Of a stretch of DNA of 64,000 nucleotides, positions 15,700-37,550 are shown in pieces. The notes under the pieces are model-generated. The model ran no database searches. It was not told the origin of the DNA and saw only the letters and a list, made by a program, of their open reading frames with translations. This DNA comes from a virus. How positions within the stretch are numbered: position 1 is the stretch's first letter; each line of letters opens with the position of its first letter. The stretch spans positions 116,404-180,403 of the IMG/VR virus record IMGVR_UViG_3300032782_000001; one strand, 5' to 3'. A program made the position numbers and the translations under genes.

Positions 15700-16431
15700 T
15701 CAAATGCCGGTGAGTTCGCACCACCGGTCTATCACCATTTGAGCGTATGCAATGGATGGCATTCCGTAGGCACCCAGAGAAAAGGCATCGTTTACTTCAA
15801 CAACAAGTGTCTTTCCTTCCGACGTGACTCCGAGGTCCAGAGAATAAGCCACAGGCGCGCTTTTAAACGCCAGTACACATTTTTGCGCAATTTCAAAATC
15901 CGGATATTTCGTGAAGTCACCTCGATAATGACGACAGTTCACAATCAGTCCTCGATGAATGAACAGTCTATATTCAGCCACGAAGTCCACCACATCAGAG
16001 GCTAAGATTTCGAATTCATCCGGGAATGAAGCCGTCTTGATAAGATCCCGGATTGCGCCACTCGTTACAAACCCTGTGAACGCTTTACCACTTTTGAGTG
16101 GCTTGATGAACATGTGATGATTATTTTCGAGACGCTCCCTAACATATTTCATGTTGGTTTCCCACATATGTCGACCATAAAATTCGCGAATTTCTTCGAC
16201 AGGTCCGTGATCTAATGTAGGTTGCACAATTCCAAGTCTATCCAGAGCTCGACGCACAGGGCCGATCCATCCATGAACTAACGTCTCTTTGCGGAGTTCT
16301 AGTGAATCGATTTCCTCGGCCGTGAAAGGAATTGTTTCTATACCAAGCATATAACATCCATACCACAGGGAAAAAGCGGTCTCATTAATGAACTCACCGT
16401 TTTTCTTCTGGATGTATGCGAGATCAATCAT
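15700..16431 (-). CDS. ATP-grasp fold protein (putative)
   Basis: FIKPLKSGKAFTG, EYRLFIHRG and DLGV..GKTLVVEVND resemble ATP-grasp lysine, central and C-terminal motifs. Confidence 0.5.
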   Translation of the reverse strand: MIDLAYIQKKNGEFINETAFSLWYGCYMLGIETIPFTAEEIDSLELRKETLVHGWIGPVRRALDRLGIVQPTLDHGPVEEIREFYGRHMWETNMKYVRERLENNHHMFIKPLKSGKAFTGFVTSGAIRDLIKTASFPDEFEILASDVVDFVAEYRLFIHRGLIVNCRHYRGDFTKYPDFEIAQKCVLAFKSAPVAYSLDLGVTSEGKTLVVEVNDAFSLGAYGMPSIAYAQMVIDRWCELTGI

Positions 16432-16458
16432 TAGACATGTTACAGCGTAAGATCTCGC

Positions 16459-17409
16459 ATGCGACTCCGAGGAACAGAATTTGGCAGAGTTTGGTGCTCT
16501 TCAGGATCATTGGGATTCTTCGGTGACGGATATTGGTATCATCGGTTGATGAAACCGTTCGGTCTGGACTACGAAGATACTACCTTCGTGGCTAAGACGA
16601 CGACTCTCTTCCCAAGGAAAGGGAACATGCCTTTGAAGGAAGATAAGGTGACGCCGAAAAATTTACTTCCTTCTTGCATTAAGATCAACTTTCGGAAAGG
16701 GGCAGTTCTGAATTCCGTCGGACTCAGCGGACCAGGTTTTTTCGATCTGATTGGAACAGGGAAATGGCAAAGGAGAACCGAACCTTTCCTCATTTCCTTC
16801 ATGTCAGTATCTTCAACGCCTGAGGGAAGGCTCTCGGAGCTTCGAGGCTTCGTTAGTTTTCTTAAGCCGAAAATCCAAGAATTTCAGGCGCCTTTCGGTG
16901 TGGAAATGAACTTCTCATGCCCAAATGTTGGGCTCCATTCCGGAGAGTTATCCTCTGAAGTCATGACGGCTTTGGAAACAGCTGCTCCGCTTCAAGTCCC
17001 TCTTATTCCGAATTTCGGACCCGACGTCTCCACAAAGATCATTTGGGACACCATGCTTCATCCTTCTTGTGATGCAGTGTCTATTTCCAACACTTTGAAG
17101 TGGGGAATGATGCCTGATCGCGTGGATTGGGAATCCATTTGGGGGTCTAAATCCTCTCCACTAGTCCAATTTGGAGGTGGAGGAATGTCCGGGTCTCCTA
17201 TTTTCCCGATAGTGTTGGAACTCGTCCAAGAAGTTTGCAAAGACTCTATTCCGAAACCCCTGATTGCGGGCGGCGGAATCATGAACGAGGCTAACGCTGT
17301 AGCACTCATTAAGTCTGGAGCTTCTGCCATCAAGCTGGGAACAGTTGCGATGCTCAGGCCGTGGCGTGTACGTGGGATTGTAAAGAAAGTTCGGGAGATG
17401 ATGCTTTGA
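16459..17409 (+). CDS. pyrD: dihydroorotate dehydrogenase (class 1-like)
   Basis: NFSCPNVG active-site motif and C-terminal LIAGGGIMNEANAVALIKSGASAIKLGT FMN-binding motif. Confidence 0.8.
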   Translation: MRLRGTEFGRVWCSSGSLGFFGDGYWYHRLMKPFGLDYEDTTFVAKTTTLFPRKGNMPLKEDKVTPKNLLPSCIKINFRKGAVLNSVGLSGPGFFDLIGTGKWQRRTEPFLISFMSVSSTPEGRLSELRGFVSFLKPKIQEFQAPFGVEMNFSCPNVGLHSGELSSEVMTALETAAPLQVPLIPNFGPDVSTKIIWDTMLHPSCDAVSISNTLKWGMMPDRVDWESIWGSKSSPLVQFGGGGMSGSPIFPIVLELVQEVCKDSIPKPLIAGGGIMNEANAVALIKSGASAIKLGTVAMLRPWRVRGIVKKVREMML

Positions 17410-18410
17410 AAATTTCCATTCGAAGGCCAGATGATTTCCATGTTCATTTAAGAGATGGTGACATTCCATCTCTCGTAGGTCCATATACGTCTGATTCCTT
17501 CTCAAGGGCTTTGGTGATGCCCAACACTTCTTCTCCCATTCTCTCAGCGATGGATGCTGAAACCTACAGGAAGAAGCTTCGAGAAGATGTCCCCCTTCTT
17601 GAGCCCCTCATGACTATTCAGCTCACAAGTTCTACTTCACCAGAAATGATCTTGGAAGCCCAAAAAGTGGGGGTTATGGCTGCCAAGTTTTACCCCTTGG
17701 GGGTCACAACCAATTCAGGGAACGGATCTCTTCAGATCACTGATTTGAGATCTCAGCTCTCCATGATGGAAGAAATTGGAATGATCTTATGCCTCCATGG
17801 AGAAACTCCAAACGTTTTTTGTATGGACAGGGAACGCGATTTCTTGCAACGTTCCCTCATGCCGCTGTCGAAGGGGTTTCCTAAACTCAAGATTGTTCTG
17901 GAACATCTATCCACGGCTGATGCTGTTGGCTACGTAGAAAATCTCCCCGACAATGTTGCAGCCACCATCACAGCTCATCATCTAGTCTTGACTCTGGATG
18001 ATGTTTTGGGAGATAAACTGAAGACGCATCATTTCTGTAAGCCCATAGCCAAGCACCCGAGAGACAGAGAAGAACTCCGAAGGGCGGCCACTTCCGGGAA
18101 TCCAAAATTCTTCCTCGGAACTGATTCAGCACCTCATCCAATCAATGGTAAAGAATGTGCTGAAGGATGTGCCGGAGTTTTCACTGCACCAGTTGCCATG
18201 GAAATCTTGGCAGAAGAATTTGAGAAAGCAGATGCTCTCCAAAAATTGGAAGCGTTCACCAGCGAATTTGGAGCACGATTCTACGGACTTCCATTGAATA
18301 AAGAAAAACTCGTTTTAGAGAAGAAATTGCGACGAGTTCCTGGTATGGTACAGAGAAATTTTGTACCATTTATGAGCGGTAAGGAACTATTATGGTCTCG
18401 AAGCTCTTGA
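17406..18410 (+). CDS. pyrC: dihydroorotase (class II, PyrC-like)
   Basis: LKISIRRPDDFHVHLRDGD...MPNTSSPI and LGTDSAPHP...CAGVFTAP...FYGLPLN collinear with E. coli PyrC; TTG at 17406 with GGGAG SD preferred over GTG 17361. Confidence 0.9.
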   Translation: MKISIRRPDDFHVHLRDGDIPSLVGPYTSDSFSRALVMPNTSSPILSAMDAETYRKKLREDVPLLEPLMTIQLTSSTSPEMILEAQKVGVMAAKFYPLGVTTNSGNGSLQITDLRSQLSMMEEIGMILCLHGETPNVFCMDRERDFLQRSLMPLSKGFPKLKIVLEHLSTADAVGYVENLPDNVAATITAHHLVLTLDDVLGDKLKTHHFCKPIAKHPRDREELRRAATSGNPKFFLGTDSAPHPINGKECAEGCAGVFTAPVAMEILAEEFEKADALQKLEAFTSEFGARFYGLPLNKEKLVLEKKLRRVPGMVQRNFVPFMSGKELLWSRSS

Positions 18411-18459
18411 AACTGACCGGCTACTGGCAGAGTATATGAGGCGATCTCGCCTCAAATAC

Positions 18460-18533
18460 CCGCCAGTAGCTCAGTTGGTAAGAGCACGAGCCTTATAAGC
18501 ACGGAGTCGGTGGTTCGATCCCACCCTGGCGGA
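18460..18533 (+). tRNA. tRNA with anticodon TAT (Ile, AUA-reading)
   Basis: Cloverleaf: acceptor CCGCCAG/CTGGCGG, D-arm GCTC-AGTTGGTAA-GAGC, anticodon loop CTTATAA, T-arm GGTGG-TTCGATC-CCACC; no CCA encoded. Confidence 0.6.
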
Positions 18534-18534
18534 C

Positions 18535-19548
18535 TTAATCGTCGTCACTAAAAGACGAGCTAGACCCTCCGTCGTCATTGTCATCATTACCGAAGGAAGA
18601 TGCGGATCCGCCGGAATCGTCATCATCTGATACGCTGGATGATGACCCGAAAGATGAGCTAGCACCGCCAGTGTCATCATCGTCGTCATACCTGCGGCGA
18701 GACCGGACCTCCCGTTCCACGTAGACGTCCCTCTCGTATACCCTGTCTCGACGCGCGCTCAAGCTGCCGAGTGCATAACCAGTAAGAAGATCCCCATTTC
18801 CTCCAGAAGAGGAAGTCTGATTCACTACTACTGTAGTAGGAGCCGCAGGAGCTGCAACATAGACCGGGCGCATAGCCGGAGCTGGAGGGGGCATAGCCGG
18901 AGGCGGCGGATCCGGAATCTGATTAGAACGACGCGGCTTGGAAGAGACTTCTCTGGCCTTATCACGGAATTTATCAGCCCATGCCTCTTCTTCCATATTG
19001 CGAACACGTTTCTCTGCAATTTCTTCGTCCAGCTCTTCGATCTTCCTCTCGTGCTCTTCTTCCCGCCGTTTGTTCTTCCACCAGAAGAAACCACCGATCG
19101 CCACTACGAGGACCACGGTGCCAAAGATCCACCATCCAGTGTTACTATTCGTGGCAGGGCCAGGAATTTGAGCAGGTGTAGATTGAGTGGTCGAAGTCTG
19201 GGTCCTGAGACCAATGGTCTTCTCAGCAATTTTCACAACGCCGTCTGCCCAACGGGCCTCTTTGAAAGCAGAATTGCCGGCAGACGAAATAGATGACCAC
19301 TGTGATGGGGTAACTCCGACGCCCTTACCGAAATGGACCACAACGTTTTTGTGGGTCGGATCCAATCCGATGGCAACCACACCAGGTTCATCTACAGCCT
19401 TGTGTACTCGCGACTCGAGTGCCGATTTGCTCAAGGAGCTTGATGTGATCACTTGAACGTCGAATGGCCACTGGGCCGCCGCGGTTTGTAGTGCGGTTAC
19501 GTCCGCAGGGCTGAAAGTCCCAGCATCATCATGAATGTTGATCGTCAT
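18535..19548 (-). CDS. TPM-domain protein with TM helix and Gly/Ser/Asp-rich C-terminal tail
   Basis: N-terminal TPM-like domain, TM segment WWIFGTVVLVVAIGGFFWW, then low-complexity tail; stop abuts tRNA. Confidence 0.65.
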   Translation of the reverse strand: MTINIHDDAGTFSPADVTALQTAAAQWPFDVQVITSSSLSKSALESRVHKAVDEPGVVAIGLDPTHKNVVVHFGKGVGVTPSQWSSISSAGNSAFKEARWADGVVKIAEKTIGLRTQTSTTQSTPAQIPGPATNSNTGWWIFGTVVLVVAIGGFFWWKNKRREEEHERKIEELDEEIAEKRVRNMEEEAWADKFRDKAREVSSKPRRSNQIPDPPPPAMPPPAPAMRPVYVAAPAAPTTVVVNQTSSSGGNGDLLTGYALGSLSARRDRVYERDVYVEREVRSRRRYDDDDDTGGASSSFGSSSSVSDDDDSGGSASSFGNDDNDDGGSSSSFSDDD

Positions 19549-19635
19549 GTCTGTGTATCCTCTCTCTACAGTTACGCTTGAAGCCGTTTCCGTGATGAGA
19601 TCATACCGGTCAAAAACTGGAATCTACGAACAATC

Positions 19636-19664
19636 TTGACACAAAGCTCGCGAACGGTTATCAT
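19636..19664 (+). promoter_or_regulatory. near-consensus sigma70 promoter TTGACA-17-TATCAT
   Basis: -35 TTGACA 19636-19641, 17-nt spacer, -10 TATCAT 19659-19664; upstream of gene 19769 with SD CAGGAGG. Confidence 0.4.
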
Positions 19665-19768
19665 GACTCAGCCATGAAGCACCACCTCTGAATTCACACC
19701 TGTCGTGGCCCTCCTGGGCACCGTCGCGTTCTCAACGTCCGACGAGTCCAGAATCCAGGAGGTAGACC

Positions 19769-20185
19769 ATGTATCAGATGAGTGAAGAAGAGCGCGCGGA
19801 GCGCTCCAAGGTGAAGGCTCTCCACGCGGCTATTCGCGGATGCGGCCCGGTTGGTGACCGGTATCGCAATCTCGCGTGGGGTTTCGTGCGCGGTTTCCCA
19901 TACCGACGCATTGAGCGGAACCATCATGTTCAAATGTTGGACAACGCCAACTATGAACAGATGGCGAAGCTCGACAACCATTATCGTCAACTTGACGGTC
20001 AGTGGTTTTATGAACACAATATGCCCTCGGAGACTTGGCTCTTCGACACCTTGAAGAAGTTCCTCCCGGAACTTAAGAAGGAACAGATTGTCACGTGGAT
20101 GCGTGACATGTCCGGTGCAATTCCTCCGCCGCCACCTCGGCCAAAGCGGACGCGTGAAGAAGCGATGGCTCACGCGGGGGTGTAG
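19769..20185 (+). CDS. hypothetical protein
   Basis: 138-aa ORF with good SD; Pro-rich C-terminus. Confidence 0.6.
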   Translation: MYQMSEEERAERSKVKALHAAIRGCGPVGDRYRNLAWGFVRGFPYRRIERNHHVQMLDNANYEQMAKLDNHYRQLDGQWFYEHNMPSETWLFDTLKKFLPELKKEQIVTWMRDMSGAIPPPPPRPKRTREEAMAHAGV

Positions 20186-20523
20186 TGGACAAGCTATACG
20201 TCATCGTCCGGGGGGATCTTCCCCCCGGAGACCAGGCCGTCCAATCCATGCATGCGGCGTTGAAATACGCCAAAGAGCATTCGGATTGGACGGCCTGGTA
20301 CGAGGCTTCCAATTACATTGCGCTCCTAAGCGTGCCTAATGAGCGAGAGCTCATGAAATTGCTGATGAAAGCGCGAGATCGAGATCTCAAATTCGCAGCT
20401 TTCTGCGAGCCGGATCTAGATGATTCTATGACTGCTATTGCACTTGAACCCGGGTTCCGATCCAGGCGCTTGTGCAATGGGCTCCCGCTTGCGCTTTCGG
20501 AAAACCAAAATATTCCGGCGTAA
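20185..20523 (+). CDS. peptidyl-tRNA hydrolase, PTH2 family
   Basis: KLYVIVRGDLPPGDQAVQSMHAAL matches PTH2 core (VxVVRxDLxMGxGKxAAQCxHAA). Confidence 0.7.
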   Translation: MDKLYVIVRGDLPPGDQAVQSMHAALKYAKEHSDWTAWYEASNYIALLSVPNERELMKLLMKARDRDLKFAAFCEPDLDDSMTAIALEPGFRSRRLCNGLPLALSENQNIPA

Positions 20524-20531
20524 GCTAGTTC

Positions 20532-20786
20532 ATGAACGACACCATTAGGACCGTGCGGGCGCTTCTTCAGAACACGGCATCACCGGCTGGTGATCACACT
20601 AAGGTTATCTTGGAAGTTAAGCAGCATTCTGGAGAAATCATCTGGCCGGACTTCATTACTCACGACGACAAAGTCTACAGGAACACTCTCACTACCCTCT
20701 GGGGTGCTCGCGTTTATTCGCAAGTCCCGGCATGTCCAGCGAGAATTTCTGAAGATAAGTGGGACGAACTGGCTAAAGGGTCCTGA
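20532..20786 (+). CDS. hypothetical protein
   Basis: 84-aa ORF; stop followed directly by next start. Confidence 0.5.
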   Translation: MNDTIRTVRALLQNTASPAGDHTKVILEVKQHSGEIIWPDFITHDDKVYRNTLTTLWGARVYSQVPACPARISEDKWDELAKGS

Positions 20787-20787
20787 G

Positions 20788-21192
20788 ATGATGGGCTACA
20801 GCGCTACCGACGTCTTCACGAAGAAGGAACAAGTGCTCTTGAGCATGGCCAAAGTTCTGGTTGAATGCTTACCAGAAATTCCAGGTCTCCGATGTCACGA
20901 AGTAGCAAGAGCCGTAGGTACCGTCTTGGGTTTGGAAACCCAAGATGGTCATTATGGACCGGTAGAACACTCCTGGCTCGTCGTTCCTCCTCGAAGCATG
21001 GGACGGGGGCCGGGAGTGCTTGACGTATACTCTGTTGGAAGTCTTCCCACAGTCCGTTTATGTGACGGGTTCCTTCTGCTCCCTTATGCCAAAGAATTCC
21101 AACCGGGGATCCCTAGGCAGGATATTGATGAAGGTTTGGTGATGGATCTTATAGACTGCATGCACGCGAGGCTTCTGGGAGCTCCGCTGTAA
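20788..21192 (+). CDS. hypothetical protein
   Basis: Begins MMGYSATD immediately after upstream TGA; upstream part of track ORF 20590 is low-complexity. Confidence 0.5.
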   Translation: MMGYSATDVFTKKEQVLLSMAKVLVECLPEIPGLRCHEVARAVGTVLGLETQDGHYGPVEHSWLVVPPRSMGRGPGVLDVYSVGSLPTVRLCDGFLLLPYAKEFQPGIPRQDIDEGLVMDLIDCMHARLLGAPL

Positions 21193-21202
21193 CGTTCAGC
21201 CC

Positions 21203-21781
21203 ATGGAAGATAACGAGATTCTCGGGAATCCGCGCGATGGCATCATTGAGCTATTGAAGGCTCGAAGTGTCAAATTTGGGAATTTCACTCTAGCGTCAGG
21301 GAAGAAGAGCGATTTCTTCGTGGATTGCAAACAATCCATTCTCACTGGTATCGGACATGTCTGGGCTGGGCAACTGATGTTGGAAGCTGTCGCCCTTCAC
21401 TTCAAGGAAGCTAGGGCTGTAGCAGGGGTGGAACTCGGTGGGTGCCCCCTGGCGAGTTCAGTGGCGCTCCTCAGTGCTGTCGCTCCTGAAATTCATAGTC
21501 TGGATGCTCTATACGTTCGTAAGACTAAGAAAGATCACGGAACTGGGAATCTTGTAGAAGGTAAAGGTGACATGGAATCCGGAACCCCGGTCGTCTTGCT
21601 TGAGGACGTCGCGACGACTGGAGGATCTTCCATGAGAGCTATCAAAGCACTTCAAGATGAAGGATTCCGGGTCCTCGGGGTTATTACCCTCCTGGATAGG
21701 AATGAAGGCGCTTCTGACGCGTTCCGTGAAGCCGACATCCCGTTTGTCGCCATCTTGGACCGATGCGACCTCGAGGACTGA
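21203..21781 (+). CDS. pyrE: orotate phosphoribosyltransferase
   Basis: VKFGNFTLASGKKSDFFVDC and PRPP motif VVLLEDVATTGGS. Confidence 0.85.
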   Translation: MEDNEILGNPRDGIIELLKARSVKFGNFTLASGKKSDFFVDCKQSILTGIGHVWAGQLMLEAVALHFKEARAVAGVELGGCPLASSVALLSAVAPEIHSLDALYVRKTKKDHGTGNLVEGKGDMESGTPVVLLEDVATTGGSSMRAIKALQDEGFRVLGVITLLDRNEGASDAFREADIPFVAILDRCDLED

Positions 21782-22713
21782 TCAGCGTCTTCCTGGTTCT
21801 GTCTTGTTCCAAGCAGCCAGTTCAGACGAACACCGAAGGCATCCCTGACGCCGGACAACCGGTCGTCGTCGAAGCCGTCCCGCTTGAGCCGGAAAACCAC
21901 CTTCCTGTCGTTACTCTCGGTGAATATTCCACCGAGTATTCATGCGAAGGGAAGGATGAAGCTCGAGCCAAGAATATCGAGCTTGCAGCTTCTCGTCTCC
22001 AAGCGTGGAACGAGAATTGGAACCCTGGCGAGGAATTCAGTTTTAACGATGCAGTCGGACCACGGACTTCAGAAGCTGGGTTCTTAAACGCTCCCGTCAT
22101 CTTCATGGGTGAGACCACAGCAGGGATAGGTGGAGGAGTCTGCCAAGTTAGTTCCACGCTCCACGCGGCCGCTCTCATGAGTGGATTGGAAGTTATTACC
22201 CGTCGCCCCCATACGCGCTTCTCCAAGTATATTCCTCACGGCTTAGATGCGACGGTGGCTTATCCGCCTGAATGCAATGGGAATCACCGGGAGAATATCG
22301 CGAATGGAAAAAATCCGAAGTGTGATTCGGTGGATTTGATTCTCCGAAACCCATTCGGATTTGAGATCAGTATTAAGACATTTACTGAAGAATCAGGTTT
22401 AGGGAAGAAGCGACTGAGAATCTGGATCGAAGGAGCCAAGAATCCGATCGAGAAAGCTTCCTACCGCATCATGCAGTCCGGTGGCGTGGATTTTAAAAGG
22501 ACCTTCCATAAAATTAGTCGAATCCGGACTGCTACTTACAAGAAGCTAGTTCAATCCGGTCAACAAGGGGCTCATGTTACTTCATTCATATCATATTTGA
22601 TGAAGGACGGGACGAAGAAAGAAATCAGCTACAGGAGTGAGTACCCTCCGGTGAACGAAACCTGGGAGGTTGGACTTCTGTACGATATGTCAGGTCCGCC
22701 GCCTTGGGAATAG
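21763..22713 (+). CDS. VanW-domain protein, probable lipoprotein
   Basis: GGGVCQVSSTLHAAALMSGLEVITRRPH matches VanW core; N-terminal LVLSCS lipobox-like. Confidence 0.6.
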   Translation: MRPRGLISVFLVLSCSKQPVQTNTEGIPDAGQPVVVEAVPLEPENHLPVVTLGEYSTEYSCEGKDEARAKNIELAASRLQAWNENWNPGEEFSFNDAVGPRTSEAGFLNAPVIFMGETTAGIGGGVCQVSSTLHAAALMSGLEVITRRPHTRFSKYIPHGLDATVAYPPECNGNHRENIANGKNPKCDSVDLILRNPFGFEISIKTFTEESGLGKKRLRIWIEGAKNPIEKASYRIMQSGGVDFKRTFHKISRIRTATYKKLVQSGQQGAHVTSFISYLMKDGTKKEISYRSEYPPVNETWEVGLLYDMSGPPPWE

Positions 22714-22718
22714 ATTAT

Positions 22719-22795
22719 GGGTCCGTAGCTCAACTGGCTAGAGCTGTCGTTTTCAACTCGAATGGTTGCGGGTTCAAATCCCGTCGGGCCCTCCA
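22719..22795 (+). tRNA. tRNA-like gene; anticodon positions 34-36 read TCA (UGA-reading) but anticodon stem weak (3 WC pairs)
   Basis: Acceptor GGGTCCG/CGGGCCC, D-arm GCTC-AACTGGCTA-GAGC, T-arm GCGGG-TTCAAAT-CCCGT, encoded CCA; loop TTTCAAC. Confidence 0.4.
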
Positions 22796-22819: not shown

Positions 22820-22892
22820 GCTTCCGTAGCCAAGTTGGTCAGGCAGCGGCTTTCAATTCCGCCACACGTGGGTTCGAGTCCCACCGGAAGCG
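22820..22892 (+). tRNA. tRNA with anticodon TCA (opal-suppressor type)
   Basis: Acceptor GCTTCCG/CGGAAGC, anticodon stem GCGGC/TCCGC (4 bp + C-T), loop TTTCAAT, T-arm GTGGG-TTCGAGT-CCCAC. Confidence 0.55.
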
Positions 22893-22913
22893 CTCGCTAG
22901 GTACTGTGGTACC

Positions 22914-23531
22914 ATGGCGCCTGTAGATATCCCGGATGGCGGTCTCGACTTGTCTTCGGCTACTGAAGACGTTGTGCGAGAATATGCCATGGACCTCATC
23001 AACGAGTACGTCCCGAGCACGACAGGAGACGACAAGTTTGCTGAAATCGCCAAAGATTATGGCGGTTCAGGGACGACCTGCGGTTATTTATGCCATTGGC
23101 TCATGTGGCGAATGGGATGCCGCGATCCGAAAATGGTGAACCGAGATGAGCCGTCAGACGGGCTTCATTATGTTCCCGGCGCGAACATTTCACGGATCTT
23201 CGCTAATCCTCATTTCGTCCATTACAAACCCGGTTTGGGAATGACGCCTGATAATGGGGACATTGTCTTCCTCAGCGACGGGCCCCCCGACACTGAGCAT
23301 GTGTACGTCTCGACTGGAGTGGATGACACGAAAGATCCCCCCATTTGGAGTGGGGCTAACGCGGGTCAGAGAGATAAAACCACTGGCAAACAGTGTTCTA
23401 TCTTCATAGACAGAACATTCTCCCATGATTCTCTCTTATACTCTGGCGGATCCAAGAAGATCGTGGGATGGGTAGATATCAGCCAGCTTCCATTCACTGC
23501 CATGGCGGATCTACACGAACCTGGTGAATGA
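22914..23531 (+). CDS. putative papain-fold cysteine peptidase (transglutaminase/CHAP-like)
   Basis: GTTCGYLCHWLMWRMGCRD candidate catalytic Cys region and downstream His/Asp; weak. Confidence 0.35.
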   Translation: MAPVDIPDGGLDLSSATEDVVREYAMDLINEYVPSTTGDDKFAEIAKDYGGSGTTCGYLCHWLMWRMGCRDPKMVNRDEPSDGLHYVPGANISRIFANPHFVHYKPGLGMTPDNGDIVFLSDGPPDTEHVYVSTGVDDTKDPPIWSGANAGQRDKTTGKQCSIFIDRTFSHDSLLYSGGSKKIVGWVDISQLPFTAMADLHEPGE

Positions 23532-24352
23532 TGCAAGGCATTAAACTCATCTTTAGGTCCAAGGAAAATCGAGTTCTCGCCTTCAAGAACGCAGATGACT
23601 GGGACCTTCCTTCTTGTTCCGTAGAACATGTGGACGAACTCCGAAACTCTACGAGGAATCTTTTCAAGAAGGTAACGGGTGCATTTCCGGATAAAGATCC
23701 CATCCCTGTGTATCGCGGATACGACGATGAATATGGGGTTTCTTCGTCGTATATTTCGGATTGGACAGGGATCCCGAAAACTAAGAAAGGTCAGAAAGCA
23801 GACTGGGTTGATGTTATCGATATATTATCCAGTAAATGGGGACTTTTTGCCCGGGATGCTTTCCACCGGCTCAAATTGATTAACCGTCCTAAGCTGGACT
23901 TGGAAGATCTCTACACAATCAGCAAGAAAGCTTTAAAAGACGGATCTCGTCATGCAAGCGAAGGCGTCGACAAAGTCATTGACGAAATTGTTTTCCTCAT
24001 GGAGATCAATAAATCTGAGGCAGTAGACAACCTGCTTCAGCATATGGATGTAACCAAACTCCATGCTGATATCTTGTCAGCTGCACTGGCGGTACTAGAA
24101 AATTACGATTTACCTTCAAAAGCAAGATTCGTCGAAGATGCCAACATCATCATTCAGGAAATCGATGCCTTACGTCCAAAAATGAAACTTAAAGATGAAT
24201 ATGGGAGAATTTTATCTCATGATGTCCGGGGGGATGCCTTGAAATATTATCGCAAGAAAGCTGTTGAATTCGGAAATCTTCTGCGAGAAGGAAAACTCGG
24301 ACCAGGCCTCCATCGAGGCGGAGCTCCCATCCCCCGCAGGAAAGCAAATTGA
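23528..24352 (+). CDS. hypothetical protein
   Basis: 274-aa ORF. Confidence 0.55.
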   Translation: MMQGIKLIFRSKENRVLAFKNADDWDLPSCSVEHVDELRNSTRNLFKKVTGAFPDKDPIPVYRGYDDEYGVSSSYISDWTGIPKTKKGQKADWVDVIDILSSKWGLFARDAFHRLKLINRPKLDLEDLYTISKKALKDGSRHASEGVDKVIDEIVFLMEINKSEAVDNLLQHMDVTKLHADILSAALAVLENYDLPSKARFVEDANIIIQEIDALRPKMKLKDEYGRILSHDVRGDALKYYRKKAVEFGNLLREGKLGPGLHRGGAPIPRRKAN

Positions 24353-24633
24353 ACTATCAGGAAAAGCAAAGACTCATTCAACAGGCATTGAAAGATATGT
24401 CTGACGGAAAGAGGAATCTTCTCAGTAATCCTTTCGCCGGTCTCATGCCTCCGAGATTGGATCCTTCAGAAGTCGCCAGAAAAATGTTTCCTATTGAGCC
24501 CCTTCCACAAGGAGCGGTGCCAGTATACTTTCTGCCTCAATGCATAAGATGTGATGGTCATTACGAAGATTTGAAAAATCATTCAATCGAAGAATGTAAT
24601 CTTTGCATCGTTGTTGATGTGATGGAGTCATGA
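24349..24633 (+). CDS. small zinc-ribbon protein, C-terminal ...VVDVMES
   Basis: CIRC...ECNLC then VMES-stop; ATGA overlap with next paralog. Confidence 0.55.
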   Translation: MNYQEKQRLIQQALKDMSDGKRNLLSNPFAGLMPPRLDPSEVARKMFPIEPLPQGAVPVYFLPQCIRCDGHYEDLKNHSIEECNLCIVVDVMES

Positions 24634-24881
24634 ACGGTCCGAAACGACTCCACTACAGTGATTCTAACAAGTTGACTGCATCCGTCAATAAAATTAGCCA
24701 TCTCATGACCAACCACGATTGGGAAGATAAGTCCGAACCAGAGAAGAAAGCGGGCGGACTTATCATTTCTAAAATCGAATTGGAATGTCGTAAATGCGGA
24801 TTGGTGGCCGGGTTGCTTCCTCTTGAGGAGTTGGATCGCGATTGCGACATTGTTTTAGTGCGCTCCGTGATGGAGTCATAA
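24630..24881 (+). CDS. small zinc-ribbon protein, C-terminal ...VRSVMES
   Basis: CRKC...DCD then VMES-stop. Confidence 0.55.
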   Translation: MNGPKRLHYSDSNKLTASVNKISHLMTNHDWEDKSEPEKKAGGLIISKIELECRKCGLVAGLLPLEELDRDCDIVLVRSVMES

Positions 24882-24920
24882 ATTTCTGTTGTAATGTTGT
24901 ATCACTAGATAACCCAATCA

Positions 24921-24936
24921 GGAGGAAGTCATGTAG
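24921..24936 (+). promoter_or_regulatory. start-stop mini-ORF: SD GGAGGA then ATG-TAG
   Basis: GGAGGAAGTCATGTAG; strong SD 4 nt before ATG followed directly by TAG. Confidence 0.2.
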
Positions 24937-24944
24937 ACTTAGAA

Positions 24945-25010
24945 ATTCGGGCGGCAGGGGTGAAGGCCCCGCACCGGTAGGTTAATGGGTTCAAGTCCCA
25001 ACCCCGACCC
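24945..25010 (+). other. tRNA-like fragment with T-arm (TGGG-TTCAAGT-CCCA) but no complete cloverleaf found
   Basis: GGGTTCAAGTCCCAACCCCGACC resembles T-arm plus acceptor 3' strand; no complementary 5' acceptor located. Confidence 0.2.
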
Positions 25011-25029
25011 GTCTTACCTTTTCCAATTC

Positions 25030-25406
25030 GGGCCTGATCGGCTTCGACTGGGGAAGAAAGAACGATCTGCGTGCAGGCGGCGCTCGATCCGCCATAACCA
25101 ATCGAGCCGACACAGCTGCCAACGACAACGGCGCCCTCCGCATCGCGGCCTAAAAAACCGCGCGGATGTCTTCCCGGCGAAACTGCTTCCAGTAACCGGA
25201 TGAAGGCACGAACCCAAGAGGAAGCTGGCCGTGGGAGTAACCCTCCTTTTATCCCGACGCCTCAGCCGGGAAGGCGAGATCAAGTCTAGGCTGACAGTGC
25301 GGAAAGACGCGCAAACTCAGTCGCAGGGGATACGGCGACTACGCACGTGAACGAGGGTTGTTTGGACAACTTCAGGACGCGGGTTCGATTCCCGCCAGGT
25401 CCACAA
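25030..25406 (+). ncRNA. ssrA: tmRNA (ssrA); predicted tag ANDNGALRIAA
   Basis: 5' GGGCCTGATCGGCTTCGACTGGGG is like E. coli GGGGCUGAUUCUGGAUUCGACGGG. 3' GGACGCGGGTTCGATTCCCGCCAGGTCCACA is nearly identical to the E. coli tmRNA 3' end. Acceptor pairs 25030-25036 with 25396-25402. Internal ORF GCC AAC GAC AAC GGC GCC CTC CGC ATC GCG GCC TAA. Confidence 0.8.
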
Positions 25407-25417
25407 GGTGTTTGGAA

Positions 25418-25606
25418 ATGCATCAATGGGAAGGTTGGGTATTTCCCAATCCAAAAGACGGTAAAGTCTTAGCTTGGGTCATTTGTGGTAGATGCAGTTA
25501 TTGTGTCCATTATGTAAATCATCAGCCCGGGTTCACACCCCCGATTCCACCGGACAATCCTCCTGATTGCAATGAACGATTGGTGAAATGGGTAATGGAA
25601 CAATGA
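25418..25606 (+). CDS. small Cys-rich protein, C-terminal ...VKWVMEQ
   Basis: CGRCSYC...DCNERLVKWVMEQ; ATG at 25418 just beyond tmRNA. Confidence 0.5.
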   Translation: MHQWEGWVFPNPKDGKVLAWVICGRCSYCVHYVNHQPGFTPPIPPDNPPDCNERLVKWVMEQ

Positions 25607-25812: not shown

Positions 25813-26026
25813 GTGGATTCCATTTCACTGCCACGCCGGTTGCGCCGGCAGTGAAATGGAATCCAAATGCACCACAAGCGTCGTCGTCCCAAGAACCGTC
25901 GTGCCGGATGCTTGCTTTGTAAACCGTGGAAGAGTAACGGAGTTAATCAGGAGAAGCCTTCGATTCGGAGGAAACTCCAAGAGAAGTTGGAAGTTTTGGT
26001 TTGCTCCGTGTAACCTGCTTCCATGA
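25793..26026 (+). CDS. hypothetical small protein (uncertain)
   Basis: 77-aa ORF, ATGA-coupled to HNH gene; competing minus ORF 25825..26160. Confidence 0.3.
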   Translation: MELGIDEWIPFHCHAGCAGSEMESKCTTSVVVPRTVVPDACFVNRGRVTELIRRSLRFGGNSKRSWKFWFAPCNLLP

Positions 26027-26679
26027 AGCTCAAAGACATCAATCTTCTCGACGTCGGTAACACGATCCAGATCGTCGGTGCTGTTTATGCCGACGACAAG
26101 AAAGTCCTGATCTGTCTCTTTCCGGAGGATCGCGGAGAGATCCAGACTGAGCAGGACCACTCATATGGCGACTGCATGGGGACTGCCACTTCCCAGCTCG
26201 TCACCAAGGACAAGAAGTACCTGGATATTGATGTTCTCGACATGGATGCCGAGGACTGGTTGAAGTTCCTGAAGCAAACCGACGTCATGGAGACCGAGAT
26301 TCTGACGAAGGCATCTGATGGGACGCTGGCGAAGGCCATCTACCGGAAGAGCCAACGTCAAATCGACCAGGTCGTGAGTTGGCAAGTCTTCAAGCGCGAT
26401 AGCTACACTTGCCGTTACTGCGGCAACGACGCCGTTCCTCTGACGGTGGATCATCTCGTTCGATGGGAAGAGGGCGGTCCAACGATCGCGGATAACCTCG
26501 TTGCTTCTTGTAAGAAATGCAACAAGACCCGCGGGAATCTCTCCTACGAGGAGTGGCTCCGACATCCACGATACCTGGAGGTCTCCAAGAGCCTCACCGT
26601 GGAAGTGAGGGCTTTGAACGAAGATCTCGTCGGCAAAATCCGATTCATCAAGAGGAACGTTCACGTTCGGACTCGGTGA
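26023..26679 (+). CDS. HNH homing-type endonuclease
   Basis: CRYCGNDAVPLTVDHLVRWEEGGPTIADNLVASCKKCN HNH core. Confidence 0.8.
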   Translation: MKLKDINLLDVGNTIQIVGAVYADDKKVLICLFPEDRGEIQTEQDHSYGDCMGTATSQLVTKDKKYLDIDVLDMDAEDWLKFLKQTDVMETEILTKASDGTLAKAIYRKSQRQIDQVVSWQVFKRDSYTCRYCGNDAVPLTVDHLVRWEEGGPTIADNLVASCKKCNKTRGNLSYEEWLRHPRYLEVSKSLTVEVRALNEDLVGKIRFIKRNVHVRTR

Positions 26680-26873: not shown

Positions 26874-27146
26874 GTGGTCCGTCGAAATCCGAAACACCTC
26901 CCAAAATCCTTCAATCTCCAGGGTCCAATCCACATCCCTGAGGCTTCGAACCTTGGAGATTCAGTTGCGGCAGCGAGTGTGGAAATGGCTGCGTTCAACT
27001 CGCCCCCTCAAGGGGAACTCATCTACCAAAAATTCCACGCGTTGACTCGCTGTCCACAATGCGATTCCATCATCGATCCCAGTAAAAGTGATCACGGTTC
27101 AGAAGAATGTAACCGTCGAATTGTGCTTCAGGTTATGGAGTCCTGA
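26874..27146 (+). CDS. small zinc-ribbon protein, C-terminal ...VLQVMES
   Basis: CPQC...ECNRRIVLQVMES. Confidence 0.5.
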   Translation: MVRRNPKHLPKSFNLQGPIHIPEASNLGDSVAAASVEMAAFNSPPQGELIYQKFHALTRCPQCDSIIDPSKSDHGSEECNRRIVLQVMES

Positions 27147-27382: not shown

Positions 27383-27946
27383 GTGAGCCACCAAAGGCGA
27401 TCCAGTATTAAACAGAATGAACGTGAAATTGGGAAACTCCGAGGCCCTCGCGGATATAGACTGTGTCGCTTTTGTCGCAAAGAAGTAATGCCTCCACGGC
27501 AGACTTTCTGTAGCGATTATTGTGTTCATGAATGGAGAATCCGTTCAGATCCTCAGTATTTGAGGAAGTTCGTCTATGAACGAGATCTTGGCATTTGTGC
27601 CATATGCCATGTAGATACTCGGTATATCCGCATAGCTCTAGAGAATGCCGCGCGAGATTCCATGATCGCCAGTGGTGTGTGGTATTGGAAAGACCATCCA
27701 ATATTTCTTGCTGAATGCAAGAAATATGGACTCACGGTCAAAGAGTCTGCGAAATCTCTTTGGCAAGCCGATCATATTATTGAAGTAGTTGATGGTGGGG
27801 GCGAGACAGATCTATCCAATATCCGCACTCTTTGCATACCGTGTCATAAACAAAAAACCCGGTCTGCTAACGCAGTGCGGAAACAAATGGCTTACGTGGA
27901 CAAGGACTTAGCACCACTTCCCGACGTCAAACGTCTCATCGACTAG
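27383..27946 (+). CDS. HNH endonuclease
   Basis: N-terminal CRFC...C..C zinc finger and HIIEVVDGGGETDLSNIRTLCIPCH HNH motif. Confidence 0.75.
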   Translation: MSHQRRSSIKQNEREIGKLRGPRGYRLCRFCRKEVMPPRQTFCSDYCVHEWRIRSDPQYLRKFVYERDLGICAICHVDTRYIRIALENAARDSMIASGVWYWKDHPIFLAECKKYGLTVKESAKSLWQADHIIEVVDGGGETDLSNIRTLCIPCHKQKTRSANAVRKQMAYVDKDLAPLPDVKRLID

Positions 27947-31876: not shown

Positions 31877-34090
31877 GTGAGCGACGAAATTCAGAAGATT
31901 CCGAAAATTCCGAATCCTTCCGGTAAGTCCGCCGTTGACGGAGAGCCCGAAGACCTAATTCAAATCGGCCAGTGGTACTGGGTCAAAAATCAAAAGGATA
32001 AAGACCCTTGGTTTGGGTGCGTCGTCCACGTTGGGACGAACTACGCAGAAGTCCAAGCTCCTCGGTATGGCTCCAGCAGGATTCATTTCGATAATTTCTT
32101 TTCCATTTGCTCTTTGGAGCCTAATCCGGATGCGGTAATCGATAAGGAGATTTCCGAGCATCAAACGGAAGTCAATCGGCTCCTTGGACGCGTGAAAGAA
32201 GTCACCGCCCAGCTCTCTATTGTCCCGAATCCTCTTCTCCAGTCTGGCAACGAAACACGAGCACTCGCGCTCCGTGGTCCAGGCCAGGATATGGGCGAAT
32301 ATGGGAAGGCGCTAGAGAAAGCCAAGAAGGAGATTCTTCCTGACTTATTCCGTCGGATTCAAAGCACCAACGAATCTCTGGCAGCATGGATGACCGCTAA
32401 GATCGTCCCGTTGAAAGCTCAAGCTAAAGGTCTTGATTCCATCATTGGAGCCATCAACGAACGCATCTTCTCGGTGGAGCTTTACGCCGGGCTGACCGAG
32501 AACGTTGAGAAAATTCGCGATGGAGAACCTGCACCACTTTCCACAAAAGTTCATCTCTTTCAGCGTCGCTGTTACATGGACGAAGAGTGTCTTGCCCATT
32601 ATGAAACGGGCGGCATATCATTCCGCAACATTCACGAATTCGATAACTGGATCGCACGAGAAGACAATCTGAATAGATTGTTTCCATTCCCTCGATCCAT
32701 CGTTGCCTTTCGTGTCCGTCGTTCGGAAAAACATCGAGAGATCATCAATTTCTCAGATTTTATCTCTCTTGAAGGAGAACTCAACGCAGATAAATGGACT
32801 TTCCTCTACATCCGGAATGGAGCTCAACTCTTTCGGATGGATACGAAAATCGAATTCGGTCATAAATTATTCCCGGATCTCGGTCATAATTCCCTCGTGG
32901 GAAAACTGTGGGCGGAAATGTTCGCCGGCAACGTCAAAAGACTCATCACAGACAACGAACACACTGGCATTATCGAGGATTTAGAGCGAGAACGAAAAGA
33001 ATGGAGGAAAAAGGATAAAGCTTTCCAGCAAGCCAAGAAGGCTGGAAAGAAAACTTCTGACGACGCAGAAGTTAACTGGCCAGGATTCGAACCAAGGCTC
33101 TTCCATGATTACGAGCCTTACGATCGTTCGAGCGTATACAAGGATGATATTGCGGAGAAAATTCAAGACGAAATCCGTGAACACAATCGAATCGGACTTG
33201 TCATTCAAGGACTCCTCGATAGATCTCCCGTTCTTCATCCGCACCCGCCTTGGCAGATTTGGACCCCAGATGGGTTCAATATGGCCTTGGAGCTTGTCTA
33301 TGATGAGAGCAGGACTCTGACCACGGGTGAGGCTCCCGACTTCGAAGCGTATCGCGCGCGATTGAACCAGTCTCTCAAGACGGGTTCAGTCACTGTTGGT
33401 CAGCAAGAAGCTTGGCTTAGATATGAGGCCAAGAAGGAATCCGATCGCCGAGATCGTGATTATCGTTATGCCAGGGAGCATTACCGACCTTCCCATTTCC
33501 AACCCCACGGGAATCCGGGGCCTGGAATTCTCGCGAAGGTTATGAATTTCAACAAGAACACCAAAGAGTGTTCGTACTCTTGGAATCGGGAACGTCAAAC
33601 TCACCCTAATTACGGAAGTCCAATTCGCACGACGTTTTCCTGTGTCTCCGGAATCGTGTTGAACGTGGATGCATACACCCCTGGAGATTTCAAAATTTTC
33701 TTCAATGATCCGAGAACCCGTGCCGATTACCTCCAGTGGGCTCCTTTGCTCTTGGAAGCAGAAGAATATCACGCCGGAAACCGGAAAGTAGTAGAACCGG
33801 CGCCTCCTGGTCCAAAAATCGAAAGTAGTTGGGAAGGTCAAAAAAGGTACGAAAATCGCAAAATCCGAAAGCAGCTTATGGGTAAAGCTGTTAGATTGGT
33901 TCGTGATGTCAAAATGATGGACGGGACCGTCTACAAGTCCGGATCACTTTGGCGAGTAATTGGAGGTTCTGGACGAGATTTTGAAATTGAAGGAATCGAG
34001 ACTGACGGGACCCCTTCCAAGAAGTCCCGAGGCATCCGGAAGATGCGTGCGCACGACTTCGAAGTAGATCCGGACATTCCGGAAAAGTAG
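31877..34090 (+). CDS. large hypothetical protein (737 aa)
   Basis: Long uninterrupted ORF, GTG start; no recognisable motif. Confidence 0.65.
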   Translation: MSDEIQKIPKIPNPSGKSAVDGEPEDLIQIGQWYWVKNQKDKDPWFGCVVHVGTNYAEVQAPRYGSSRIHFDNFFSICSLEPNPDAVIDKEISEHQTEVNRLLGRVKEVTAQLSIVPNPLLQSGNETRALALRGPGQDMGEYGKALEKAKKEILPDLFRRIQSTNESLAAWMTAKIVPLKAQAKGLDSIIGAINERIFSVELYAGLTENVEKIRDGEPAPLSTKVHLFQRRCYMDEECLAHYETGGISFRNIHEFDNWIAREDNLNRLFPFPRSIVAFRVRRSEKHREIINFSDFISLEGELNADKWTFLYIRNGAQLFRMDTKIEFGHKLFPDLGHNSLVGKLWAEMFAGNVKRLITDNEHTGIIEDLERERKEWRKKDKAFQQAKKAGKKTSDDAEVNWPGFEPRLFHDYEPYDRSSVYKDDIAEKIQDEIREHNRIGLVIQGLLDRSPVLHPHPPWQIWTPDGFNMALELVYDESRTLTTGEAPDFEAYRARLNQSLKTGSVTVGQQEAWLRYEAKKESDRRDRDYRYAREHYRPSHFQPHGNPGPGILAKVMNFNKNTKECSYSWNRERQTHPNYGSPIRTTFSCVSGIVLNVDAYTPGDFKIFFNDPRTRADYLQWAPLLLEAEEYHAGNRKVVEPAPPGPKIESSWEGQKRYENRKIRKQLMGKAVRLVRDVKMMDGTVYKSGSLWRVIGGSGRDFEIEGIETDGTPSKKSRGIRKMRAHDFEVDPDIPEK

Positions 34091-36347: not shown

Positions 36348-37550
36348 GTGGAACTACGAACGAAAAATACTCCCGTCCACGGGTTGGACTTAGTTGGTAG
36401 GTATTCCAAAGAAGTTCGTGCGATCCCTCTTTTATCCAGGGACGACGAAGAGAACTATTTCAGAAGAATCGATAGCGCTGAATCTGAATATGTCAAACAC
36501 ATTTTGAGTCATCCGGACGCTAAAAGCCTACTCCGAAATTTAGTAAGGCAATCTTTTTCCAGGGAAGATTCCACGATCATCCCTCTTTTGGAATCTGTCA
36601 TTTCTTCAATGCATCGCAAGAATGCAGTAGAAATGACTGCGATCCTTGTTCCACAATCTCGATTTTCTGATGGCATGAGGAAGTGGCTCGATGACCTACC
36701 TTGCGAAATGAAATCCACTAAATCTGTTCGGACTTCCACAATCTGGATGAAGAAACTATCAAAATTGTGGATGAACCGAATTGATATCAAATCACAATTT
36801 GTCCAAGCAAATCTTCGCCTAGTGATGATGATCGCTCACAAATATGCGAGGACAGCCAATTCACTGAGTTTCCTTGATTTAGTTCAAGATGGTAATATTG
36901 GCCTAATGAGGGCCGTCGACAAATTCGACTTGGTCCGAGGGAACCGATTTTCTACTTATGCAGTTTGGTGGATCCGCCACAGTATTAAACGATCTTTGCA
37001 AGATTGCGACAAAACTGTTCGAATTCCCGTTCATATTTCAGATAGAATGTCTCAAATGGCGAAAGTAGAACAATCATTTTATACTCAGTTCGGTAGCAGA
37101 CCGGACAATAGAATTATCGCCCATGAATTAACTGTTCCTGTCGGCAAAATCAAGGCGATGGAATCCGTCCGTCGTATTTCAGTTACTTCTATTGACGCAC
37201 CCGTGAATTTCATGGAAGATGGGTACGTTCTTTCGGAGGTCATCCAAGACAAGGAAACACCTTCACCACTGGAAGAACTCACGAAGGTGCGCATGTCTGG
37301 TGATGTAGATCAGGCGCTAAAAAGGTTGACCGAGCGGGAAGCTCTCGTTTTAAGGATGAGGTTCGGGTTCGGATTCCAGGAGCATACTCTCCAAGAAATC
37401 GCCACCAAGTGGGGGCTCTCTAGAGAGAGAATTCGACAAATTGAAGCTGAAGCACTTTCCCATTTGCGTGGGAATCAGCTATTGAAAGATTATACTGAAG
37501 GAACGCCCAAACGGTTCAAAAAGCGCTCCATTGTATCGTGTCGTCCGTGA
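36348..37550 (+). CDS. RNA polymerase sigma factor, sigma-70 (RpoD-like) family
   Basis: Region 2 DLVQDGNIGLMRAVDKFD...YAVWWIRHSI, region 3, and region 4 LTEREALVLRMRFGF...TLQEIATKWGLSRERIRQIEAEAL. Confidence 0.85.
   Translation: MELRTKNTPVHGLDLVGRYSKEVRAIPLLSRDDEENYFRRIDSAESEYVKHILSHPDAKSLLRNLVRQSFSREDSTIIPLLESVISSMHRKNAVEMTAILVPQSRFSDGMRKWLDDLPCEMKSTKSVRTSTIWMKKLSKLWMNRIDIKSQFVQANLRLVMMIAHKYARTANSLSFLDLVQDGNIGLMRAVDKFDLVRGNRFSTYAVWWIRHSIKRSLQDCDKTVRIPVHISDRMSQMAKVEQSFYTQFGSRPDNRIIAHELTVPVGKIKAMESVRRISVTSIDAPVNFMEDGYVLSEVIQDKETPSPLEELTKVRMSGDVDQALKRLTEREALVLRMRFGFGFQEHTLQEIATKWGLSRERIRQIEAEALSHLRGNQLLKDYTEGTPKRFKKRSIVSCRP

Follow-up and report, generated by a model that had tools for sequence, protein, structure and literature searches.

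A one-piece tmRNA gene in a putative huge-phage genome, its covarying relatives in other large phages, and its setting among suppressor tRNAs and an apparently frameshifted release factor

Within a 64,000-nucleotide stretch of viral DNA (positions 116,404 to 180,403 of the IMG/VR record IMGVR_UViG_3300032782_000001; this whole stretch is referred to here as the window, and coordinates are those of the window unless another locus is named), a gene for transfer-messenger RNA (tmRNA, ssrA) lies on the plus strand at 25030–25406. From the sequence comparisons described below we consider it quite probable that the phage itself encodes a functional tmRNA of the one-piece type, passed down among a group of large and huge phages. 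Phage tmRNAs have been published before, with tmRNA, SmpB and the release factors RF1 and RF2 reported in huge phages (Al-Shayeb et al. 2020, PMC7162821), and tmRNA present in 402 of 18,146 phage genomes, with discussion of its possible roles (Buchholz et al. 2022, PMC9004378); the occurrence of the gene is therefore a fairly ordinary finding. What is added here is a covarying clade of 15 phage tmRNAs, together with its context of suppressor tRNAs and an apparently frameshifted RF1. In the published phage-tmRNA work that we compared, which already recognizes tmRNA among phage auxiliary genes, we found neither a comparable covariation-supported clade analysis nor an experimental test of a phage tmRNA.

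The original prediction, made from the letters of the window, proposed a tmRNA with the tag ANDNGALRIAA at this position, and ARAGORN and Rfam both agree with it. ARAGORN calls a one-piece, non-permuted tmRNA at 25030–25404 (+), with the tag ANDNGALRIAA* and the coding part at positions 89–124 of the gene. The covariance-model search that had been suggested as a check gives a match to RF00023 at 25030–25406 (+) with 111.9 bits, far over the gathering score of 47 (E = 6.8e-43, and 1.1e-43 when restricted to a 10-kb sub-search), and the alignment spans model positions 1–374 of 374 and is not truncated, with a mean posterior of 0.74. RF00023 also outscores the permuted, alpha, beta and cyanobacterial tmRNA models of the same clan at these coordinates. 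A generic two-anchor pattern for one-piece tmRNAs matches once in the window and not once in 100 dinucleotide-preserving shuffles. The G+C content of the gene is 60%, and that of the window about 48%. The tmRNA locus is identical at 549 of 549 positions in an independent Logan assembly of run SRR8881007 (locus L152), indicating that it is no chimera or assembly artefact.

The ends of the RNA quoted in the original prediction are present, and they form the 7-bp acceptor stem described there, with GGGCCUG (25030–25036) pairing with CAGGUCC (25396–25402). G25032·U25400 corresponds to the G3·U70 alanine identity pair, the discriminator is A25403, and the T-arm, GCGGG-UUCGAUU-CCCGC (25379–25395), immediately precedes the 3' strand of the acceptor stem. 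Helix 2 has three parts, its 5' strand occupying 25048–25075 (H2a at 25048–25053, H2b/c at 25060–25074) and its partner strand, 25343–25375, holding a block that is invariant throughout the clade, CUACGCACGUGAA. Between helix 2 and the resume codon lies pseudoknot 1 (PK1, 25076–25107), which consists of two interleaved stems, GGCGG/CCGCC (25076–25080 with 25089–25093) and GCUCGAU/AUCGAGC (25082–25088 with 25101–25107). The tag frame (25118–25153) has no start codon of its own but begins at the resume codon GCC, with an A at position -4 relative to it, and reads GCC AAC GAC AAC GGC GCC CUC CGC AUC GCG GCC UAA exactly as predicted, giving 11 codons and a UAA stop at 25151–25153 that sits in the loop of the helix 5 hairpin (CGCGG/CCGCG, 25144–25162). 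PK2 follows at 25167–25225, with stem 1 formed by 25167–25177 and 25196–25208, and stem 2 by GCUUCC/GGAAGC (25185–25190 with 25220–25225). The segment corresponding to PK3 and PK4 (25226–25342) diverges more than any other part of the RNA, and its pairings are ambiguous. The expected pseudoknot and tag-frame architecture can thus be read for PK1, PK2 and the tag frame, but for PK3 and PK4 only as short alternative stems.

This organization resembles that of Escherichia coli ssrA, which likewise has a tRNA-like domain with a 7-bp acceptor stem, G3·U, discriminator A and T-arm, a long helix 2, PK1 before the resume codon, a stop codon in the loop of helix 5, and then PK2; the short reading frame similarly starts with Ala and ends in Ala-Ala, and the ANDN of the window tag resembles the start of the E. 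coli tag ANDENYALAA. The likeness is real but confined to the tRNA-like domain, and the earlier description of the two ends as near-identical to E. coli overstated its extent, as 28 of 32 nucleotides (nt) are identical at the 3' end and 18 of 27 columns at the 5' end, where there is also a 2-nt deletion. Over the whole alignment the two RNAs are 46% identical, and blastn aligns only the last 30 nt (E = 5). The window RNA further differs in that its D-loop analogue is 2 nt shorter, its acceptor pair 4 is C-G rather than G-C, and it lies in a phage-like genome of 48% G+C; two other differences, at the 3' terminus and at the end of the tag, are taken up below. At the level of sequence the gene has what is expected of a tmRNA, except for an encoded CCA and with the ambiguity of the PK3 and PK4 pairings.

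Related tmRNAs were recovered from several phage-like loci. One, L154, was found through a homologue (64% amino-acid identity) of a 205-amino-acid (aa) protein encoded upstream of the window tmRNA. The tmRNA in L154 begins 60 nt past that gene, has the tag ANDNAMLAVA*, and shares long blocks with the window RNA beyond the tRNA-like domain. A pattern derived from the blocks of these two RNAs identified L157, with the tag ANDNAIPFSEDRIAA*, on a contig of 65% G+C in which a 136-aa open reading frame (ORF) encodes an SSB and nine other tested ORFs have no Pfam match. A looser clade pattern (CTACGCACGTGAA ... GGTTCGATTC) matched 14 IMG/VR contigs, 12 of them with a tmRNA call; these 12 measure 24–513 kb. 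In all, 14 homologous tmRNAs were recovered, on phage-like contigs of 3–513 kb, and several of these adjoin arrays of at least 20 tRNAs. Some of the loci have other genes in common with the window: L161 encodes a 38%-identical homologue of a 274-aa window protein about 500 nt upstream of its tmRNA, and further genes of the window recur in L159 and L164. The Rfam score of the window tmRNA is typical of such genes, with 110–129 bits for three other sampled viral tmRNAs on large contigs and 94.9 bits for L154.

Comparison of these RNAs indicates that their pairings are maintained. A three-way comparison of the window, L154 and L157 shows 21 of 43 helix pairs altered on both sides yet still paired (a count taken with the H2c rows of the window one position off, H2c being in fact invariant); the G3·U pair and the H2c stem do not vary. 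The pairs altered on both sides among these three RNAs include acceptor pairs 5, 6 and 7, seven of the 11 pairs in PK1, and four of the six in PK2 stem 2. When all 15 sequences are aligned, 29 of the 42 pairs proposed by RNAalifold carry compensatory changes, and the program recovers the acceptor stem, helix 2, PK1 stem 2 (with compensatory changes), PK2 stem 2 and the T-arm. The T-stem pairs have both-sided changes in 3, 8, 2 and 1 sequences, none of them broken, and the U, the next two Cs and the discriminator A (columns T371, C372, C373 and A374) are invariant in 15 of 15 members. The ANDN codons of the tag vary synonymously among the relatives (GCC/GCA/GCG, GAC/GAU, AAC/AAU), suggesting that the peptide is also under selection, and the compensatory pairs and synonymous codons together argue that the gene is under selection as a working tmRNA. 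In keeping with the original prediction, two ORFs that overlie the RNA, 24985..25203 (+) and 25014..25283 (-), appear to be artefacts; they have no Pfam match and are not called by the contig's gene caller, the minus-strand ORF does not resemble its positional counterpart in L154, and substitutions between relatives track the RNA stems and the tag frame instead.

Nearly all of the clade tags begin ANDN(A/S/G). Their C-termini (RIAA, LAVA, AIAA, GIAA, AKAA, DKAA, QKAA, PVAA and GLAA) are unusually varied compared with the canonical ALAA, and the terminal Ala-Ala is kept in most members. The tag ends at UAA in the window and in L159, at UGA in L154, and, as read from the alignment, at UGA in most of the 15 members. 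For one member, L170, the tag reported by ARAGORN (VADLPRDSLGSG) looks mis-called, and the alignment suggests ANDNAYAAVA.

Other searches returned no close relative. In INPHARED (50,697 phage records) there was no match either by megablast of 24 kb around the gene or by blastn of the tmRNA alone, and the exact tag, back-translated into a degenerate DNA pattern, gave no matches in viral contigs and none in metagenome contigs. A relaxed tag pattern applied to 185,579 reference genomes matched only four permuted alphaproteobacterial tmRNAs (in Micavibrio and others; for example ANDNGALAVAA); these are two-piece RNAs, such that the resemblance is one of tags and not of homology, and they did not reveal the host. 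A pattern from the 5' tRNA-like half matched 12 viral loci, with no close relative among them, and the generic one-piece pattern identified at least 120 IMG/VR viral contigs with a tmRNA, the best of which is 66% identical to that of the window. No tmRNA was found within 10 kb in relatives of a 737-aa ORFan of the window (L006–L015) or with the more distant 205-aa homologues L153 and L156, and the peptide-pattern method found no IMG/VR relative of the 274-aa protein.

Exact protein matches place the window on the ENA metagenome contig ERZ27256589:k141_1250017 (337,333 bp), and a JGI contig of 436,316 bp bears PyrC and 205-aa proteins identical to those of the window. Gene content was surveyed over about 84 kb of the 337-kb contig, corresponding to the window and two 10-kb flanks, and absences of genes are reported for this span. 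The majority of its ORFs have no Pfam match. Those with assignments include a phage holin family protein, two HNH and one GIY-YIG endonucleases, a UvsX/RecA-like recombinase (UvsX-like by PHROG matches), and SbcC-like and Mre11-like proteins; a DNA methyltransferase, sigma factors, DNA polymerase A, DnaB, primase and dCTP deaminase; and R2K ATP-grasp, PyrC, PyrD, PyrE, macro-domain, PTH2 and DnaJ proteins. Homologues of the lineage-specific 737-aa ORFan (31877–34090), at 43–50% identity, occur on ten IMG/VR viral contigs, of which eight measure 157–529 kb. The tmRNA lies inside the 337-kb contig with phage-like genes extending for more than 25 kb on either side. The Rfam scan showed no rRNA genes in the window. 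Of the ORFs in the 84 kb that were scanned or pre-annotated, none was found to have a ribosomal-protein, SmpB or other core translation domain, and the scanned ones include no integrase domain. We consider that this gene content and the IMG/VR relatives point to a huge-phage genome. PyrC homologues gave no answer as to the host, the best non-self matches being 55–66% identical and the few named ones coming from mixed taxa (Parcubacteria, Binatia, Melainabacteria, Actinobacteria).

Upstream of the tmRNA by 2.1 kb are two plus-strand tRNA(UCA) genes (22719–22795 and 22820–22893), which would read UGA. ARAGORN labels them SeC, though at about 75 nt they are of normal tRNA size. A homologous tRNA is conserved in L150 (6038–6113, UCA) and in L152, and has the anticodon UUA, reading UAA, in L155 (138–215), which is part of the same phage as L154 (the two are identical across a 777-nt overlap). 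Judging from these sequences, the suppressor tRNA of this lineage appears to have changed the stop codon that its anticodon reads. The 82 window ORFs of at least 100 aa end in TGA (37), TAA (27) or TAG (18), and the visible genes give no sign of recoded in-frame TGA, the ORF-length test for recoding of TGA, TAG or TAA being a crude one.

A release-factor gene further upstream (12972–13638, +) appears to need a +1 frameshift. A first ORF, 12972–13082, is preceded by a good Shine-Dalgarno sequence and encodes MSVIVEIRAAEGGDDAKLLVEDQLRVYARRAVRRGL, the start of release-factor domain 2; it ends in CTT TGA C, with GGAGG and 3 nt before it, which is the classical prfB frameshift signal (candidate +1 frameshift sequence GGAGGGGUCUUUGAC, 13068–13083, +). 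A +1 shift joins this ORF in frame to ORF 13012–13638 (208 aa), and the fused 221-aa product is collinear with RF1 model positions 113–325, scoring 211 bits compared with 183 for the 208-aa ORF. The fused protein has the PPT and GGQ motifs and is without domain 1; by its sequence it is an RF1-type termination factor and not a rescue factor. It is unusual for a factor of RF1 type to be preceded by a UGA frameshift sensor of the RF2 type.

The original prediction had interpreted the tmRNA, the release factor and PTH2 together as a takeover of ribosome rescue. A tmRNA with the stated tag, in a phage-like genome, is what we find, but the larger claim is not supported as it was written. The release factor is of a termination type rather than a rescue factor such as ArfB and is 12 kb off, PTH2 belongs to a conserved pyrimidine-gene cluster 5 kb away, and neither the window nor its flanks yielded SmpB, alanyl-tRNA synthetase (AlaRS) or a CCA-adding enzyme. 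The two tRNA(UCA) genes and the RF1 look more like a module for changing the meaning of stop codons than one for rescue. As in the code-change module of TGA-recoded phages (Borges et al., bioRxiv 10.1101/2021.08.26.457843), the window has tRNA(UCA), here in two copies, and an RF1-type factor, and in accord with that model (a suppressor tRNA and RF1, with or without an aminoacyl-tRNA synthetase) its visible early-type genes are in the standard code. It differs from the TGA-recoded phages, however, in that TGA is the commonest stop among its visible genes, and Borges et al. mention neither tmRNA nor frameshifting (0 occurrences of each). Among phage tmRNAs described previously, those of huge and cultured phages (PMC7162821, PMC9004378) are similar in being complete genes accompanied by tRNAs, a release factor and further genes for translation, with ARAGORN-level evidence and an inferred function. 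The huge-phage sets include SmpB, whereas none was found in the 84 kb surveyed here, and the tmRNA of phage Melnitz (PMC9004378) is a permuted two-piece RNA behind a glutamine riboswitch, whereas that of the window is in one piece with no riboswitch match.

A plausible course of events, modelled on the established tmRNA pathway, is as follows. The gene would be transcribed as part of a plus-strand polycistronic unit, RNase P would cut at G25030, and 3' trimming would be followed by addition of CCA by nucleotidyltransferase. Neither a sigma-70 promoter nor an intrinsic terminator was found beside the tmRNA, where promoter-like sites are fewer than in shuffles, and the next ORF is 12 nt 3' of the gene, such that the RNA is probably excised from a longer transcript. 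The window encodes at least two sigma-70-family proteins of its own, which may explain the absence of a standard promoter; one (36348–37550, 400 aa) has regions 2 and 4, and the other (59331–59996, -; 12866–13531 in L029; 221 aa) has a weak region-2 match known from pre-computed annotation only. Host AlaRS would charge the RNA with alanine through G3·U and the discriminator A, and with host SmpB and EF-Tu it would enter ribosomes stalled at the 3' ends of mRNAs without a stop codon; host factors are assumed because SmpB, AlaRS and the CCA-adding enzyme are not among the genes found in the 84 kb. Translation would resume at GCC, add (A)ANDNGALRIAA, and terminate at UAA, so that tagged peptides would end in AANDNGALRIAA, with the ribosome freed and the peptide marked for host proteases. 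The benefit to the phage is the least certain step, and may be an added rescue capacity while infection raises the load of stalled ribosomes, with possible contributions from host mRNA breakdown, defence RNases, and UGA read-through by the two phage tRNA(UCA)s.

Several observations weigh against a functional tmRNA of phage origin. There is no encoded 3' CCA; the genomic sequence reads A-CAA after the discriminator, and the 3' ends of relatives read ACCC, ACCG or ACCA. An encoded CCA is a matter of processing, however, and is not needed for membership of the tmRNA family. As the gene reads ACAA and not ACCA, the CCA must come from enzymatic addition, and the mature RNA probably ends at the discriminator A25403, with CCA added post-transcriptionally. 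The PK3 and PK4 segments have low Rfam posteriors, offer only the short stems noted above, and are hard to align among the relatives. The tag ends in RIAA and not in the canonical LAA, and its recognition by host proteases is presumptive. No match to PF01668/SmpB was found in window ORFs or in the 10-kb flanks, nor a tblastn match with E. coli SmpB, and there are no capsid, portal or terminase genes in the 84 kb.

Some of these points bear on the possibility that the RNA is a passenger or decaying copy of a host ssrA, acquired for example by imprecise excision of a prophage integrated there, and functionless for the phage. The ssrA gene is a common integration site for prophages and its fragments are found in phages (PMC9004378), and here the Rfam score is modest and PK3 and PK4 are weak. 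Yet the RNA is full-length with all core elements intact, it lies in the interior of the contig with phage-like genes to both sides and no integrase domain among the scanned ORFs, and distant relatives have homologues in which the pairs covary and the tag changes are synonymous. There is moreover no INPHARED match and none above 66% among the 120 other IMG/VR tmRNAs, bacterial genomes having been scanned for the tag pattern alone. On balance we regard this explanation as highly improbable. It is also very unlikely, in our estimation, that the contig comes from a megaplasmid or a small cellular genome, and that the tmRNA gene is the resident ssrA of such an element. The lack of virion genes in the span surveyed, the presence of pyrC, pyrD, pyrE, sigma factors, RecA and DnaJ, and reports of large plasmids with similar sets of translation genes (PMC7162821) would fit such an origin. 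It accords poorly, however, with the failure to find rRNA genes in the window or ribosomal-protein, SmpB or other core translation domains in the 84 kb, with the predominance of ORFs without Pfam matches alongside a holin, two HNH and a GIY-YIG nuclease, UvsX-like and R2K ATP-grasp proteins, and with the finding that homologues of the 737-aa ORFan and of the tmRNA are on IMG/VR viral contigs, several beside arrays of 20 or more tRNAs. Arrays of this size are typical of large phages.

Two other alternatives accept a functional phage tmRNA and concern what it is for. It could act mainly through its peptide, with the non-canonical C-terminus altering the fate of tagged proteins, for example by freeing ribosomes without degradation by ClpXP or by directing host proteins to another protease so that their amino acids are recycled; the varied C-termini of the clade and the retention of ANDN at the amino-acid level are consistent with this, and phage Melnitz has been suggested to tag host proteins selectively (PMC9004378). 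We think this unlikely, however, as the terminal Ala-Ala is retained in most members and a comparable diversity of tags is seen among other viral and bacterial tmRNAs. A more substantial possibility, though a doubtful one, is that the tmRNA is an arm of a stop-codon manipulation module comprising the suppressor tRNAs (UGA here, UAA in a relative) and the RF1-type factor, and is retained specifically to clear ribosomes which have read through stop codons and run on to the 3' ends of mRNAs, its own stop avoiding the phage suppressor. In the window the two tRNA(UCA)s, the 205-aa gene and the tmRNA are all within 2.7 kb, the L154/L155 phage has its tRNA(UUA), two genes and the tmRNA within about 1 kb, and in L159 (a 427-kb contig) a tRNA(UCA) is 4.4 kb from the tmRNA. 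The suppressor tRNAs look homologous with a switched anticodon, and the tmRNA stop is UAA where the suppressors read UGA (window and L159) and UGA where the suppressor reads UAA (L154); of 120 other viral tmRNA loci, just one has a suppressor-like tRNA close by. tRNAs that suppress nonsense codons are known to give rise to substrates of trans-translation (Ueda 2002, as cited in PMC3985003), and RF1 with a suppressor tRNA is the published code-change module of TGA-recoded phages (10.1101/2021.08.26.457843), which makes a link between stop-codon manipulation and the tmRNA plausible; the tRNA(UCA)s may be functionally connected with the tmRNA. Nevertheless, the arrangement was scored in only three phages, all related, and may thus be a single inherited layout; the stop-codon avoidance is possibly chance (rough odds of 0.03–0.4, depending on the counting method); the frequent use of TGA as a stop in the window and the lack of evident in-frame recoding do not favour it; and most clade members are seen as short loci, where missing suppressors are uninformative. 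More broadly, and only tentatively, the huge-phage lineage may hold a linked termination set composed of the suppressor tRNAs, the frameshifted RF1, PTH2, and a tmRNA with an avoiding stop codon, in which the prfB-like UGA shift of an RF1 without domain 1 would sense the efficiency of termination at UGA.

The genes around the tmRNA differ among the relatives. The 205-aa gene (22914–23531, +), with its homologue in L154, serves as a marker of the conserved neighbourhood, and is followed by the 274-aa gene (23528–24352, +) that has a homologue in L161. Three additional genes (274, 94 and 83 aa; 23528–24881) separate the 205-aa gene of the window from its tmRNA, where L154 has just 60 nt (679–738), and two HNH endonuclease genes are located 3' of the tmRNA (26023–26679 and 27383–27946); the neighbourhood seems to be an insertion hot spot. 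Just upstream of the tmRNA (24920–24936) is a strong Shine-Dalgarno sequence and then a start-stop pair, AGGAGG-AAGTC-ATG-TAG, probably of no significance. A T-arm-like sequence, GGGTTCAAGTCCC, at 24987–24999 was considered as a feature and rejected, as it is not called as a tRNA, and the 100 nt upstream that contain it show no folding advantage over shuffles (z = 0.17) and have no conserved counterpart in L154 or L157.

Seven window proteins end in V-M-E-S before the stop (one of them as VMEQ), for which the chance expectation is far below one. Their genes are at 3203–3862, 24349–24633, 24630–24881, 25418–25606, 26874–27146, 43081–43806 and 53554–53925 (all +), with others in L028 (7864–8253) and L154 (1701–1925). 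The VMES codons vary, which suggests a C-terminal motif at the protein level. Five of the proteins form a small paralogous family, CxxC...[EDK]C[ND]xx[IL]Vxx-VMES, with no Pfam match, and three of these flank the tmRNA. Further upstream a cluster at 15700–22713 encodes R2K ATP-grasp, PyrD, PyrC, tRNA-Ile(UAU), PTH2, PyrE and VanW, in the same order as in L150 (1–6022) and with 66–70% amino-acid identity; three pyrimidine-biosynthesis enzymes in one phage is a notable number. In the contig upstream of the window (L028, 5752–6357) there is a 201-aa protein with class-II aminoacyl-tRNA synthetase domains of the His type, too short for a complete synthetase, adjoining an HNH endonuclease and an Rv2179c-like exonuclease.

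Returning to the favoured explanation, that of a functional one-piece tmRNA encoded by the phage, the comparisons suggest a tmRNA family that is inherited and is under both structural and peptide selection across many large phages, a pattern that speaks for a genuine role and against chance acquisition, and the 15-member alignment provides a base for a dedicated covariance model. The setting of the tmRNA, next to suppressor tRNAs and an RF1 apparently under frameshift control, points to a possible link, open to testing, between the manipulation of stop codons by the phage and the rescue of ribosomes. If that link is true, the tmRNA would be the clean-up arm of a phage-driven change in stop-codon use, and not a general booster of rescue.

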